A DNA stretch of 60,319 bases, from the IMG/VR virus record IMGVR_UViG_2870495154_000003; one strand, 5' to 3'. Every line of letters starts with the position of its first letter. The first letter of the stretch is position 1. The notes below the pieces were generated by a model. That model was not told the origin of the DNA, did not search any database, and was given only the letters and a program-made list of their open reading frames with translations. Origin of the DNA: a virus (taxonomy: Duplodnaviria; Heunggongvirae; Uroviricota; Caudoviricetes). Shown here in pieces: positions 3,000 through 7,678 of this stretch. Both the position numbers and the translations under genes were made by a program.

Positions 3000-3422
3000 T
3001 TAAAACGGTATATTATCGCCGTACGGATCATCATTCCCCGACTGTTGTTTTGCCCTGTTCAGTGCGTCAGTGGCCTGCCCCTGCTGGCCTTTTTTGCCGC
3101 CCGGTCGCGCCGTTCGCGCACTGATTACACTGTCTGCGATAACCTGCCAGCCCTGCCGCGTTTCGCCGTTCTGGCCTGTCCACTGGCTTACCTGCATGTT
3201 ACCCGCCACGCTCACCAATTCGCCTTTGTGGTGTTTTGCCAGTGCGTCGGCCTGTCTGCCAAACGCCAGGACGGATAACCACATCGTCGCCGTTCCGTCA
3301 TCTGCCTGGCTGCACGGCAGGGGAACCGCCATACTCGCCATCGCCATTTGTGTCCCTTTGCTGGTGGTCTTTAACTGCGGGTCAGCCACCAGCCGCCCGT
3401 AAGCCGCTATCTGTGCTGTCAT
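3000..3422 (-). CDS. ssb: Single-stranded DNA-binding protein (140 aa)
   Basis: OB-fold-like core (WLSVLAFGRQADALAKHHKGELVSVAGNMQVSQWTGQNGETRQGWQVIADSV), Gly/Gln-rich linker and acidic C-terminal tip DDPYGDNIPF, comparable to E. coli SSB ...DFDDDIPF. ATGA overlap with the upstream ORF. Confidence 0.8.
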   Translation of the reverse strand: MTAQIAAYGRLVADPQLKTTSKGTQMAMASMAVPLPCSQADDGTATMWLSVLAFGRQADALAKHHKGELVSVAGNMQVSQWTGQNGETRQGWQVIADSVISARTARPGGKKGQQGQATDALNRAKQQSGNDDPYGDNIPF

Positions 3423-3664
3423 GCTGTCTGCTCTCCGGTTTTAACGTTGATGGTTGTCACCTGTTCCGCTTCGGCAATCTCCCGTTCTGTCAGCGTGGCA
3501 AAGTTTGCAGCTGCCGTTGTCATGAATGAGCTAATCAGTTCGGGATGTGCTTTCGCATATCCTTCCCCGGCGTTGCGGTCGATGATTTTTATCGACACCC
3601 TTAACCAGTGTTCCGTCAAATCAAGGGCGTGCGATTGTGATTTTTTTGTGTGCTTCGCTGTCAT
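3419..3664 (-). CDS. Hypothetical protein (81 aa), translationally coupled to ssb
   Basis: ORF in track; its stop overlaps the ssb start (ATGA). No recognisable motif. Confidence 0.45.
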   Translation of the reverse strand: MTAKHTKKSQSHALDLTEHWLRVSIKIIDRNAGEGYAKAHPELISSFMTTAAANFATLTEREIAEAEQVTTINVKTGEQTA

Positions 3665-3951: not shown

Positions 3952-5769
3952 TTAATTTTTGCTATCGTCATTAGTGACCGATACACATGATGGCATCCAG
4001 TCTTCTGATTCCTCCGTCAGTGTCACGTTTGAACGCAAACCGTGCTTCGTTTTCCGTTTCATATACTCCCTGCCATATTCCGCCATTGCCCCCGGCATAT
4101 CTTTACCGAAGCGCGTCAGTGTTACAGGTTTACCAAACCCATGTGCCTTCATATAAGCCAGATAGGCATGATAGAGATACCTGCGCGGGCTGAATGGCAC
4201 AATTTCAGCATTACCCACTAACAGGCCATCACACATTACCGACGCCATGAGATAGCCGCAGAAGTCCACCAGCGAATCACCTTCACGCTTTATCGCGAGT
4301 GCTTCTTCTGATTTCTGCTGCTCATATAAAAGGCGTCTGGCTTCGTCCTGGTCAGCAAACCGTGTAAGCAGATGACGAATCACTACCGCCAGCTCACCTT
4401 CTATTTTTTCCGCCAGCATTGAATCGCGTTCGTTCTCCGGTACAACTTCCGAAAAATTGAATATCACCCGACGGCGCGAGATCCCCCCACTGCGGTCACT
4501 GAATGACATAGCGTTATTGTTAACCGCCAGCACTACTGCCGGGATACGCGTTGAATATGGGGCTTTATGTTTTGGGTCGATTGCCACCTTGTCACCGCCT
4601 GTAATAGCCTTAATTCCCGCCCCATCACCAGCGTAGCGGGTCATATCCGGCATGATAATCAGCGAAAAGCCAACCACTAACGCGCGTTCCCTTGCATCTT
4701 CCAGCGCCTTCATGCTCGCTGATACTGTATTAGCCTTACCCGCCAGCATGGTGCAAATCTCCGCCATCACGCTTTTACCACTTCCCCCTGGACCTGTTAC
4801 CTCAATGAATAACTGCCAGTCGTACCGGTTCGCCAGCACCATGAATAATGCAGCCAGTACGCGATCCGCCTTGCGGTCATTCTCAGCCACCGAACGGCGT
4901 AACCACTTCCAGAAATTCGGCGCATGTGTTGCCAGCGTTTCCCCCTCTGCTGGTGGGCTGAAAGGTAATTCACTGGCAATTAACAACCAGTCGTTTTTGT
5001 TATGCTCCCGAAAATTACCTGTTCTGGTATCAAATACCCCGTTACTGAATCCAATCAGGTTACGGGCTGTATTCCCCATTACAGGCAAACTTAACTTCAT
5101 GGTATCGACCGCCGATTTAATGGCGTTCTGCGAATAGCTGATCTCCGCATCAATGAAAATCTGTGCCATAGCTCGCTGTAATTCTTTATCCTGTACTGGC
5201 TCCCATACAACGCCGTTGTAATGGTGAACAGTGTCAGAGTCAGCATGAATCGCCAGTTCACCGCCATAATGTGCCAGGAGAACTTCGCCGCGTTGACTTG
5301 CTCCCATCTGGTTAAGCGCCAGTGATGAAGCGTTATCGTCTTTTACCCGCTCTTTTTTCTTTACAGGCAGTTCAACTACCTTTTTCTTTTCCGCCAGCTC
5401 TCCCCGCTCACGTTCCAGATATTCGCGCCAGTTCTCCCGTTTCTGGCTGTGCATTCCTTCAGGGTAATAATCAGCATCCCTGACACCTGCCGCTGCCAGT
5501 TTCTGCCCGATGGTATTAACAAGCCCCGGACGCAATAACCCCGCCTGGTAGAGACGCACGCGATAGCGTCCGTCCGGTACGATTTGCAGGTTGTCCAGTT
5601 CGGCAAGTTGTTGCTCTCCAAGCCAGACAGGTGGCACGTTATCGCCAGCCAGTCGCCCGTCCTGTTCCTGCCACTGCGTCGCATGTGCCCACGCATCACT
5701 ACCCGCAAAAATGATGACTTCCGTCATTTTGTCACGCGGCTGGTGTTTTAAATTTGGCGCTTTTTTCAT
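3952..5769 (-). CDS. Primase-helicase, P4-alpha / D5-type (605 aa)
   Basis: ORF 3952..5784 trimmed to the ATG at 5767..5769 (GGAGAGAG SD; ATGA overlap with upstream ORF). Walker A GPGGSGKS in the C-terminal NTPase region; overall layout typical of satellite/PICI primase-helicases. Confidence 0.85.
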   Translation of the reverse strand: MKKAPNLKHQPRDKMTEVIIFAGSDAWAHATQWQEQDGRLAGDNVPPVWLGEQQLAELDNLQIVPDGRYRVRLYQAGLLRPGLVNTIGQKLAAAGVRDADYYPEGMHSQKRENWREYLERERGELAEKKKVVELPVKKKERVKDDNASSLALNQMGASQRGEVLLAHYGGELAIHADSDTVHHYNGVVWEPVQDKELQRAMAQIFIDAEISYSQNAIKSAVDTMKLSLPVMGNTARNLIGFSNGVFDTRTGNFREHNKNDWLLIASELPFSPPAEGETLATHAPNFWKWLRRSVAENDRKADRVLAALFMVLANRYDWQLFIEVTGPGGSGKSVMAEICTMLAGKANTVSASMKALEDARERALVVGFSLIIMPDMTRYAGDGAGIKAITGGDKVAIDPKHKAPYSTRIPAVVLAVNNNAMSFSDRSGGISRRRVIFNFSEVVPENERDSMLAEKIEGELAVVIRHLLTRFADQDEARRLLYEQQKSEEALAIKREGDSLVDFCGYLMASVMCDGLLVGNAEIVPFSPRRYLYHAYLAYMKAHGFGKPVTLTRFGKDMPGAMAEYGREYMKRKTKHGLRSNVTLTEESEDWMPSCVSVTNDDSKN

Positions 5770-6059
5770 TTCTGCTCTCTCCACGCGGCAATCATGTTTT
5801 TCAGTTCCTGTAGTTTTTTATCCACACGTGACACATGGTTATTTCTGGAAAGCGGGATTTCCCGCCTGAATCTGCTAATAAAGATCTCCACGTTCAGCGA
5901 ACTATGAAATGAATAGCCATCACGAATAAAATAAACACGGTCAAACATCAGTTCTTTTACCGTTACTCTGTTACCGTTCTTATCCAGATAAATAGCGCCG
6001 GGGATAATTTTTGGGTGTGCATAACCGCTGGCAGTCAAGCCAGATAAATATGTTCTCAT
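5766..6059 (-). CDS. Hypothetical protein (97 aa), translationally coupled to primase
   Basis: ORF in track; stop overlaps the primase ATG; GGGGA SD upstream. Confidence 0.5.
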   Translation of the reverse strand: MRTYLSGLTASGYAHPKIIPGAIYLDKNGNRVTVKELMFDRVYFIRDGYSFHSSLNVEIFISRFRREIPLSRNNHVSRVDKKLQELKNMIAAWREQK

Positions 6060-6065
6060 GATTAT

Positions 6066-6386
6066 TTATCCCCGATTTGAATCAGTATTCGCTTTCTTTA
6101 TGGCATTTAATGCATCTGTGGCATTTTCAATGGTGCACCGTAACGAAATATCAAACTGCCCAAGCATTGCCAGTAACAAGCCAATATTCCCCATGTCAAT
6201 GCGCATAGCCTTTTCGTCATATTCCTCATTTTCTGACGCATGCCACATCAGGCTACCAATTGACGCAACAGCCATTGATATATTGTCAGTAGCCCCATCC
6301 GCAGCGGAATAAACCTTTTTAGCAATATCATGCTCACAGTTAAAATGCGGATTAATCAGGTACTGGTAATTTGACATATCAGGCAT
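6066..6386 (-). CDS. Hypothetical protein (106 aa, [15 protein letters not shown]...)
   Basis: C-terminal part of ORF 6066..6821; the upstream part of that ORF is Pro/Arg/Leu-rich and looks off-frame. ATG at 6384..6386 overlaps the stop of the upstream ORF (ATGCCTGA). Confidence 0.45.
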
Positions 6387-6918
6387 GGCACACCCCCTGG
6401 CGAATACGGGCGGCGAATACAGCAACACAACCGGACGGGCAGCGGTTACGCGCTTCACGTTCCGTCCAGGCGGTGACGTGGATGATTTGATGGTCTGACG
6501 CGCCAAAGATGATAAAGCGCCAGAGAAAGGCGGTTTGAGAATGTACAAGGGTAGGGATAGTAGCCATGTTGGCAGCCTCCTTTGACAGTGAAGAATTTCC
6601 ACCGCAGGAAACGCCAATTTCGCTGGCGGTGGACTGAACGGGGTTGGCGTAACCGGCGTCAAAGGGAACCGGCGCTTCCGAAGAAGCCCCCGCCCAGCCC
6701 ACCATAACTTTGATGTGAGCGAATGCGGACGATAAAAAAGACGCTGGCGCGTCATATATCGCCTTTGACATTTCCAGGACGCCAATCCCGGCACCAGATT
6801 TTGCTGGTGCGGATAAATCATAGCCCTGGCTTGCAGTGGCGATCAACTGGTTTTTTACACCCGCTTTATTCAGGTTGTGCGAGTCCCGCCCTTGCGGGTG
6901 TGTGGTATGATTTCTCAT
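6379..6918 (-). CDS. Hypothetical Ala/Gly/Ser-rich protein (179 aa; alternative 62-aa start at 6567 with AGGAGG SD)
   Basis: 3' part of the 429-aa ORF 6379..7668; in-frame ATG at 6916..6918 with GAGG SD, just beyond the divergent operator region. Confidence 0.3.
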
Positions 6919-7015
6919 AGCGACCTCGATACTATCGTTATCGTTGGTGGTTAGAAGCCCCGTTACTGCTCCAACAGTGCGGGGTTTCGTCGTTTCTGCA
7001 CCTTGCATCAACAAG

Positions 7016-7067
7016 GTGTTGAACACCAATGTAAACTCAGGTGTTGAACACGTCAAGTGTTGAACAC
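7016..7067. promoter_or_regulatory. Operator-like array: three copies of the 11-bp palindrome GTGTTGAACAC
   Basis: Sites at 7016..7026, 7041..7051 and 7057..7067, in the ~200-bp divergent intergenic region between minus-strand ORF start 6918 and plus-strand ORF start 7118. Recurs in every copy. Confidence 0.6.
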
Positions 7068-7117
7068 TTGTTTTTTTTCCTGCATACTGCATTTGTTTTT
7101 TGTGAGGGGTACACAAC

Positions 7118-7297
7118 ATGGCGACAAAAGCAGTAAACGCAAAATCACAAACAGTTGCGGCAAGGGTTCCGCATGAAGTTATGAACAATGTTGAGGCGGT
7201 AAAAATGCCTGGTGAAAGTACAGGGCAATTTGTAACAGCAGCATTAAAGCGAGAAGTTGAATACCGCCAGCGACGCAAGGCTAAAGAGCAAGAATAA
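7118..7297 (+). CDS. Small ribbon-helix-helix-like DNA-binding protein (59 aa), putative regulator
   Basis: Not in the ORF track (below 60 aa). ATG at 7118 with GAGGGG SD 7 nt upstream; translation [59 protein letters not shown]; directly downstream of the palindromic operators. Confidence 0.55.
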
Positions 7298-7354
7298 TCA
7301 CTATCAGCGCTGTGGTGTGAGGTACTCCGGCGCATTGCTTTACAGGTCGGCACT

Positions 7355-7564
7355 ATGAGCAAAAAATACCTATCCACTGAAGAGATTTTCGCAGAACAAC
7401 GAAGATTGCTTTTACAGAGCATTGTTGCACGCCAGAAAGAAAAGGCACACGCTAAACAAATGCCACCAAATACAGAACCAGCGCCTACAAAATTTGCGCT
7501 TGATGAGTTTCTCAATAAACAGCCCCGGGTAATGAAAGCTAACAGGAACCGCCCACCAGGCTGA
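7355..7564 (+). CDS. Hypothetical protein (69 aa)
   Basis: ORF in track, co-oriented with the RHH gene and followed by a plus-strand terminator. Confidence 0.4.
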
Positions 7565-7628
7565 TCACATTGCCCACCAGCCAGCAAATCGCTATGATGG
7601 CTGGGCTTATGTTTAGTGTATTCCCACT

Positions 7629-7660
7629 GGCGACCTCTGATCCGGGTCGCCTTTGTTTTA
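7629..7660 (+). terminator. Rho-independent terminator (GGCGACC-tctgatccg-GGTCGCC followed by TTTGTTTTATG)
   Basis: Read directly from the sequence; sits between the convergent plus-strand ORFs and alpA. Confidence 0.6.
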
Positions 7661-7678
7661 TGTGTCATATGCCCCCCT

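Follow-up and report, generated by a model that had tools for sequence, protein, structure and literature searches.

What is encoded by a chain of small open reading frames (ORFs) that leads into a viral primase gene, and does it serve to manipulate a helper phage or to govern the primase itself? This question is raised by the virus record IMGVR_UViG_2870495154_000003 (Caudoviricetes), the whole stretch of which, 60,319 nucleotides (nt) in length, is here termed the window. A preliminary description of this DNA reported that ORFs of 179 (or 62), 106 and 97 amino acids (aa), chained by overlapping stop and start codons, precede the primase gene; it recognized no motif in any of them and proposed all as candidates for helper-manipulation proteins. 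The analysis presented here points to another answer, in which we place considerable confidence: the chain is most probably the 5′ part of an early ‘immunity plus replication’ operon of a P4-like satellite or phage-inducible chromosomal island (PICI), with a P4-type eta/kil and an isrK/C4 RNA leader.

All of the ORFs concerned lie on the minus strand, at the positions and with the lengths first ascribed to them. ORF1 (179 aa) runs from 6918 to 6379 and contains a nested ATG at 6567, from which a 62-aa gene is read to the same stop (6379–6567) behind the Shine-Dalgarno (SD) sequence AAGGAGG at 6582–6576. ORF2 (106 aa) extends from 6386 to 6066 and ORF3 (97 aa) from 6059 to 5766, whilst the last gene of the chain, a P4-alpha-type primase/helicase with D5_N, DUF5906 and Pox_D5 domains, begins with an ATG at 5769 and ends at 3952. 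The start of ORF2 overlaps the stop of ORF1 by 8 nt (ATGCCTGA; tgcc-ATG-cc-TGA) and the stop of ORF3 overlaps the primase ATG by 4 nt (ATGA), so that the chain does lead into the primase. ORF2 and ORF3, however, do not overlap, the TAA stop of the former being followed by a 6-nt gap and then the ATG of the latter. With the junctions verified, the earlier description is therefore essentially right, except that the ATGA sits between ORF3 and the primase. The six copies of the gene-chain region within the window are all identical.

Contrary to the reported absence of motifs, two of the three ORFs match known families. Residues 34–127 of ORF1 match Pfam Phage_ASH (PF10554; 1e-18, 68.1 bits against a cut-off of 26) and residues 131–174 match the NCBIfam Icd-like model NF033153 (3e-15, 56 bits against a cut-off of 25); residues 16–67 of ORF3 match DUF4222 (PF13973; 7e-17, 61.2 bits against a cut-off of 27). 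In addition, Rfam identifies two RNA genes that lie within the first two-thirds of ORF1, its ‘Ash’ part. In a 100%-identical island of Escherichia coli CREC-532, the NCBI annotation (Prokaryotic Genome Annotation Pipeline, PGAP) labels 6379–6567 as ‘Icd-like’, ORF2 as hypothetical and ORF3 as DUF4222, and designates the RNA region a pseudogene fragment of the ‘ash family’. A PADLOC scan of ORF1, ORF2, ORF3 and two neighbouring plus-strand ORFs returned no match.

The first of the RNA genes, an isrK-type small RNA (sRNA) equivalent to seqA of P4 and a1b1 of P1, occupies 6810–6734 of the minus strand (RF01394; 75.1 bits against a cut-off of 50). It comprises a 5′ hairpin, box a1 (6785–6779, TTGGCGT), box b1 (6769–6762, GTCAAAGG) and an intrinsic terminator (6753–6740 plus a T run). 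The second is a C4/CI-type antisense immunity RNA at 6709–6622 (RF01695; 82 bits against a gathering score of 45), which carries box b′ (6665–6658, CCUUUGAC) in the loop of hairpin 2 and box a′ (6650–6644, ACGCCAA) in its 3′ single strand. Complements of both C4 boxes are present twice on the same strand, once as a1/b1 within isrK and once in an mRNA target region (6576–6617) made up of a2 (6617–6611, TTGGCGT) and b2 (6586–6579, GUCAAAGG), the latter overlapping the SD sequence of the 62-aa ORF.

To compare these elements, 80 related loci (given below as L followed by a number) were gathered via the Icd-like protein, and 19 distinct leaders of the window's type were aligned. Across these leaders the C4 fold and the a′/a2 and b′/b2 pairings are together 99.7% paired and include 18 pairs with changes on both sides, values reached by none of 500 shuffles, whereas versions slid by 1–3 columns are only 30–52% paired. 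Both intermolecular pairings are 100% paired, with covariation at five of the seven a′/a2 pairs and six of the eight b′/b2 pairs. The C4 stems are 99–100% paired and hairpin 1 shows two-sided changes at all five of its pairs; for boxes a1 and b1 of isrK, pairing to the C4 boxes reaches 100% and 96.7%, respectively, again with two-sided changes. The leader as a whole folds far better than its shuffles (z = -5.0). At least five types of a box and at least six types of b box occur, in at least eight combinations, and these combinations would constitute distinct antisense specificities. The fold, a target that covers the ribosome-binding site (RBS) and an upstream copy of that target are all present, which on sequence grounds assigns the leader to the module represented by P4 CI and P1 c4.

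The two parts of ORF1 have evolved differently. In the 62-aa part, the ratio of non-synonymous to synonymous polymorphism (pN/pS) is 0.34, compared with 1.83 and 0.92 in the shifted frames; in the upstream Ash part (117 codons) it is 0.81–1.03, compared with 0.64–1.32. The Phage_ASH part does not show the purifying selection on amino acids that is expected of a protein domain, and its conservation appears to be RNA conservation seen in one frame. The Eta-like frame is nonetheless open, having no stops in 26 of 27 distinct leaders, whereas the other two frames contain 1–11, and an indel between leader types is exactly 3 nt. ORF1 has a start of its own at 6918 (GAGG-N5-ATG), upstream of the internal promoter discussed below, and a start of this kind (GAGG-N5-ATG or GGAG-N6-ATG) is found 348–369 nt upstream of the kil ATG in most leaders. 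For kil itself, the proximal ATG, in the context GGAGG-N7-ATG, gives a product of 61–66 aa in 79 of the 80 loci, the exception being L035 (88 aa), and kil is the first translated gene downstream of the predicted internal promoter. The 62-aa ORF is thus a predicted protein-coding Kil/Icd-like gene; the 179-aa ORF is classed as Eta-like, with a frame that is kept open and amino acids that seem unconstrained, because phage P4 has the same layout (Phage_ASH, an Icd-like tail and an 8-nt overlap with epsilon). By analogy with P4, we infer that this frame is kept for the act of translation and not for a protein product. Two observations on the same frame may be added. The PF10554 match, at 6537–6819 of the window, coincides with the isrK and C4 genes and has a pN/pS near 1. 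In the relative L010, a 1-nt deletion in the isrK region, at about position 2720 (column 30 of alignment A1), closes the Eta-like frame, so that frame 0 contains 2 stops; neither the RNAs nor kil is affected, and the locus is a natural eta-minus variant. A view of the 179-aa ORF as a mere artefact of RNA conservation was also considered and rejected, as the open frame and the conserved SD and ATG argue for translation, as with P4 eta.

The closest parallel is the left operon of P4. One strand of the P4 genome carries ORF88 (AlpA/Vis-like), the old ‘cI ORF’, epsilon, ORF151, ORF106 and the alpha primase, and Rfam finds isrK and C4 there in the same order, the CI RNA matching the C4 model at 74.9 bits. 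A 199-aa frame of P4 that ends at 8168 matches Phage_ASH at 3.8e-23, and its last 65 residues, which are P4 Kil, match the Icd-like model at 1.6e-21; these nested 199-aa and 65-aa frames are eta and kil. The start of epsilon overlaps the stop of the preceding ORF by 8 nt. The P4 operon (PLE-seqA-CI RNA-seqC, eta/kil, epsilon-orf151-orf106-alpha) and that of the window therefore have the same order on one strand downstream of an AlpA/Vis homologue, and share a long ORF with Phage_ASH and an Icd-like tail, an 8-nt overlap with the next gene and a P4-alpha-type primase that ends the operon. The 62-aa protein is 34% identical to P4 Kil in a MAFFT alignment. In the summary of Forti et al. 1999 given in PMC10111431, the leader transcript of P4 is described as being processed into CI RNA, with Kil translated only on read-through, whilst full-length Eta is translated only from the upstream late promoter, coupled to the alpA homologue; translation of Eta prevents termination and the downstream genes are then expressed. 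There are also clear differences between the two elements. The small genes are unrelated (ORF2 versus epsilon/orf151 and DUF4222 versus DUF5375), two plus-strand genes (YlcI/YnfO and a 69-aa ORF) and three operator repeats separate alpA from the leader in the window element, and genes for a lambda-type capsid, decoration protein and small terminase take the place of sid/delta/psu. The box sequences differ from those of P4, so the immunity specificity would differ too.

Comparable arrangements are found in other systems. The c4-icd-ant operon of P1 has been described (PMC8198154), and the immI region of P1/P7 (c4-icd-ant1/ant2) resembles the present leader in that an antisense RNA is made from the operon under its own control, with boxes both upstream (a1b1) and over an Icd-type RBS (a2b2), downstream genes depend on translation of icd, and C4 and c4-a1b1 belong to a common Rfam clan. 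The cargo differs, being an antirepressor in P1 and a primase operon here. The 62-aa protein is related to P1 Icd through the NCBIfam family name only, and when 50,697 phage records were searched with it by tblastn, a single satellite-like record was recovered, with no match to P1. In the isrK-orf45-anrP region of Salmonella Gifsy-1 (PMC4825925), the isrK sRNA likewise has its own terminator with read-through into a small ORF that is AUGA-coupled to the next gene, a short RNA is processed from the orf45 region, and orf45 is conserved in nucleotides and variable in amino acids; in contrast to the replication genes here, what IsrK activates there, in trans, is the translation of an antirepressor. 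For PICIs, the Rfam C4 and isrK models have been reported to match several Gram-negative examples (Mageeney et al. 2023, PMC10111431), and the module is therefore already known in such elements. The element shares the four-zone layout given there in connection with the ‘Bro/dynamic zone’ of Gram-negative PICIs: int and alpA; a dynamic zone, whose eta-like gene contains C4/isrK relatives; a zone for replication, with primase and SSB; and a late zone that holds captured capsid genes. The abstract and matched passages of PMC10111431 do not deal with box covariation, eta-frame statistics, ORF2 or coupling of DUF4222 to the primase.

Two promoters can be proposed for the operon. A predicted constitutive promoter similar to PLE of P4 (TTGATC-18-TATGAT; 6817–6846, minus strand), obtained by consensus scan, lies inside the 179-aa ORF and ends 7 nt before the 5′ end of isrK; the TGAT of its -10 element is conserved in the leader alignment. 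As this site is downstream of the ATG at 6918, no transcript that starts there can encode the 179-aa form. A second candidate from the same scan, a putative regulated promoter upstream (TTGACG-17-TACATT at 7056–7028, within a minus-strand region of 7010–7067), could give rise to transcripts that do. Three operator-like near-palindromes, (A/G)GGTGTTGAACAC, bracket the -35 and -10 elements of this site and lie between it and the divergent YlcI/YnfO gene (7118–7297, plus strand); they probably form the binding array of the element's protein regulator.

By analogy with P1 and P4, transcripts from the internal promoter (about 6846–6817) would yield stable C4 RNA, which would pair with a2/b2 and block the translation of kil. 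ORF2, the DUF4222 gene and the primase gene follow kil by way of the 8-nt overlap, the 6-nt gap and the 4-nt overlap, and, with kil untranslated, the downstream message would be neither translated nor completed, being terminated prematurely, so that the primase would stay off (satellite ‘immunity’). Transcripts from further upstream, whether from the 7056–7028 site or from the alpA promoter, would be translated through the long Eta-like frame, and ribosomes crossing the RNA genes and their target would keep C4 and Rho off the message, so that the operon would be expressed on induction.

A number of points weigh against this reading. Three components of the proposed regulatory model, Rho-dependent termination, RNase P processing and the toxicity of kil, have been transferred from P4 and P1. 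Both promoters are predictions of a consensus scan, which returned 7 sites where 3.4 are expected by shuffling. BLASTP produced no alignment between the 62-aa protein and P4 Kil, so that homology rests on the shared NCBIfam model and the 34% MAFFT alignment. Many relatives that have an Icd-like gene show no detectable C4 upstream of it, so that the gene chain can occur without the RNA switch. Finally, no homology to characterized proteins supports a function for ORF2 or DUF4222.

The chain itself is well conserved among relatives, in which all of the frames are kept, the long ORF1 frame only as an open frame. In 77 of the 80 loci a primase gene is found 680–2345 nt beyond the Icd-like gene and on its strand, and 64 distinct icd-to-primase segments were compared. 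In these segments the gene after icd, whichever family it belongs to, overlaps the icd stop by 4, 8 or 11 nt, and in nearly all of them an ATGA overlap joins DUF4222 directly to the primase. The preservation of both junctions exceeds what chance would produce, and the operon has thus retained coupling as one of its features; it is through this coupling that control of one RBS can reach the primase. The slot after icd is occupied by ORF2, by a second Ash-Icd module or by families of unknown function (F2–F5), which are mutually unrelated by hhalign; in total at least six families of small proteins are represented. Four loci (L019, 3066–3530; L028, 3225–3689; L038; L068) contain a second complete module, with a c4-a1b1 target, C4 and a second Icd-like tail, in the form of a 153–168-aa ‘Ash-Icd’ ORF with 8-nt overlaps on both sides, which amounts to tandem immunity modules.

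Within this operon, the roles of the two downstream small proteins can be considered separately. It had been suggested that all three ORFs might act on a helper phage. For ORF1 this does not hold, its counterpart being a characterized Eta/Kil-RNA regulatory device, and for ORF3 the near-invariable coupling to the primase points more to a replication module than to helper interference; ORF2 retains its candidacy by position only, sitting in the slot of P4 epsilon with the same 8-nt overlap. ORF3 is evidently coding (pN/pS = 0.57) and a profile search with it recovers 632 relatives annotated as DUF4222. It is predicted to fold into a Tudor/SH3-like barrel of four strands with a long helix after it (predicted local distance difference test, pLDDT, 73.7), and a PDB sequence search with the DUF4222 profile gave weak chance matches only. 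It can be argued from the near-obligate ATGA junction that DUF4222 belongs to the replication module, and it is predicted to be a small Tudor-like protein, tied in a stable partnership to the primase gene. That ORF3, perhaps along with ORF2, assists the primase/helicase as an accessory protein, e.g. by loading it or by linking it to a host protein of replication or transcription, with the ATGA setting the stoichiometry, is a proposal to be taken seriously, although we rate it at somewhat less than an even chance.

ORF2 is also coding, with a pN/pS of 0.33 against 1.28 and 2.33 in the shifted frames, and is rare, its distribution being narrow. A word-indexed search of 5.8e9 proteins places it in a family of 19 clusters, nearly all from E. 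coli, and a full HMMER scan of 1.8e9 representatives adds four true distant relatives of 30–67% identity; proteins with tetratricopeptide (TPR) or immunoglobulin (Ig) repeats that also scored highly were rejected as repeat-inflated. Residues of about 50–85 (window 6129–6236) resemble a single TPR-like helix pair (YDEK...GN-IG-LLL..LGQF), a stretch that led HMMER to overscore an NB-ARC/TPR repeat protein (P0021) and whose likeness is probably convergent. AlphaFold2 predicts a two-helix hairpin (helices 19–51 and 58–104; pLDDT 77.9), for which Foldseek found generic helical hairpins only in PDB and BFVD (E > 0.1). ORF2 has no Pfam, NCBIfam or PADLOC match and hits only the unnamed phrog_15327. 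It was considered as a homologue of P4 epsilon and rejected, having no match to Pfam Derepression (PF25738) and a probability of 0.2% in hhalign; the same program found nothing against P4 orf151 and at most 1.1% probability against slot families F2–F5.

A tentative alternative to a purely replicative role, which we regard as rather unlikely, is that ORF2, and perhaps ORF3, are effectors that manipulate the helper or host in the manner of P4 epsilon, being expressed only once immunity is lifted and binding a helper or host protein. ORF2 is, like epsilon, the first gene after kil, with a start that overlaps the kil stop by an identical 8 nt; the slot is a cassette site for at least six unrelated families, and a predicted helical hairpin would suit protein binding. 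Its distant relatives, encoded by satellites, lie in comparable runs of small overlapping ORFs flanked by AlpA/Bro-N genes and by other replicases, namely an AAA_25 helicase (upstream of which lies an Icd-like gene with the same 8-nt overlap), a DUF927 replicase and one unassigned protein, and ORF2 is therefore not tied to one replicase. However, no similarity links ORF2 to epsilon or to any characterized protein, and of the 13 loci (among 80) that contain it, 12 pair it with the divergent DUF4222 allele of the window, usually with the same primase N-terminus, a pattern that fits a replication module equally well. Furthermore, lambda-dependent PICIs are not known to need helper derepression. 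The epsilon slot is filled in the window by a genuine small protein, predicted to be helical; our best guess, weakly supported, is that ORF2 is a protein-binding factor of the kind that such a slot holds. A broader and more speculative extension, which must be considered doubtful, is that the whole stretch from kil to DUF4222 is a cassette site with recombination at the kil stop/start, the cassettes being helper- or host-specific analogues of epsilon for helpers other than P2 and DUF4222 a Tudor-like adaptor that joins the primase to a host machine such as RNA polymerase. All proteins of the slot would then be translationally slaved to Kil, and hence to the RNA immunity switch.

Much less credible is the proposition that ORF1 is a genuine 179-aa Ash-Icd fusion protein, a transcriptional regulator whose amino acids matter and whose RNA matches are incidental. 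Such a protein would explain why full-length ORF1 matches phrog_29966 (9e-83), together with several PHROGs labelled as regulators or repressors, why Pfam treats Phage_ASH as a protein family and why an open frame with a good SD and ATG is found in all but one of the leaders. The product of P4 cI is an RNA. The PHROG ‘repressor’ labels probably inherit an older protein reading of that gene (PMC10111431). The Ash part is also indistinguishable from shifted frames in its pN/pS, in contrast to the Icd part, variation is concentrated in the RNA boxes and stems, where the changes compensate one another in the RNA, PGAP annotates the Ash piece as part of a pseudogene or, in many cases, leaves it out, and the close relative L010 has lost the frame altogether; together these observations make a fusion protein very improbable, and the Eta/Kil-RNA interpretation is preferred. 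Overlaps of 4 and 8 nt are common in phage operons. That those seen here reflect only compact gene packing, without regulatory meaning, is the least plausible proposal of all, since the overlap of icd with the next gene persists whilst the downstream gene is exchanged among at least six families, and since coupling is functional in the homologous systems of P1, P4 and Gifsy-1 (PMC4825925, PMC8198154 and PMC10111431).

Part of this island region is found in 1844 of 5426 complete genomes, and the assignment of the chain to an eta/kil-type operon corrects the annotation of a very common region of E. coli islands: what is called the ‘Ash family protein’ is best understood as two regulatory RNAs overlain by an open frame, and not as a protein domain. 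The RNA immunity switch has at least eight exchangeable specificities and probably decides which co-resident satellites repress each other's replication. The current understanding of the mechanism of P4-type immunity is unchanged by these results, whilst the remaining novelty is narrowed to two small proteins, the ORF2 family and DUF4222, and the definition of a cassette slot provides a place in which to seek new satellite–helper or satellite–host factors.

Upstream of ORF1 its frame remains open, and the maximal in-frame ORF is predicted to be 429 aa long (6379–7668, minus strand), starting 11 nt after the alpA stop behind the SD sequence AGGGGGG. This frame runs into eta/kil through two plus-strand genes to which it is antisense, YlcI/YnfO and the 69-aa ORF (7355–7564), both of which are apparently real. 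In 10 other distinct related loci, too, there is a start 10–19 nt beyond the alpA stop, and relatives L084 and L085 have a 427-aa ORF at the same position. Open stretches of 1000–2270 nt in the icd frame occur in many relatives (2271 nt in L015).

The element as a whole is an island of roughly 10.5 kb in which the integrase, AlpA and P4-type primase genes share one orientation, an arrangement that places it among PICI/P4-like satellites; its integration site in E. coli CREC-532 lies between clpS and yljB/cspD. Its genes include int, alpA, primase, SSB, a lambda-type major capsid, a head decoration protein and a small terminase; the set of phage genes is incomplete, with no portal, protease or large terminase. 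The remainder (window 3000–3664; L001, 3017–6083) also encodes an 81-aa PHROG-1231 protein and a helix-turn-helix regulator. The window (1–60319) consists of about 5.75 head-to-tail copies of this element, with units of 10483–10488 nt that differ by a few indels, and could represent either a concatemeric intermediate of replication or packaging or an artefact of long reads or assembly derived from a circular molecule. C4 and isrK each recur six times along it.

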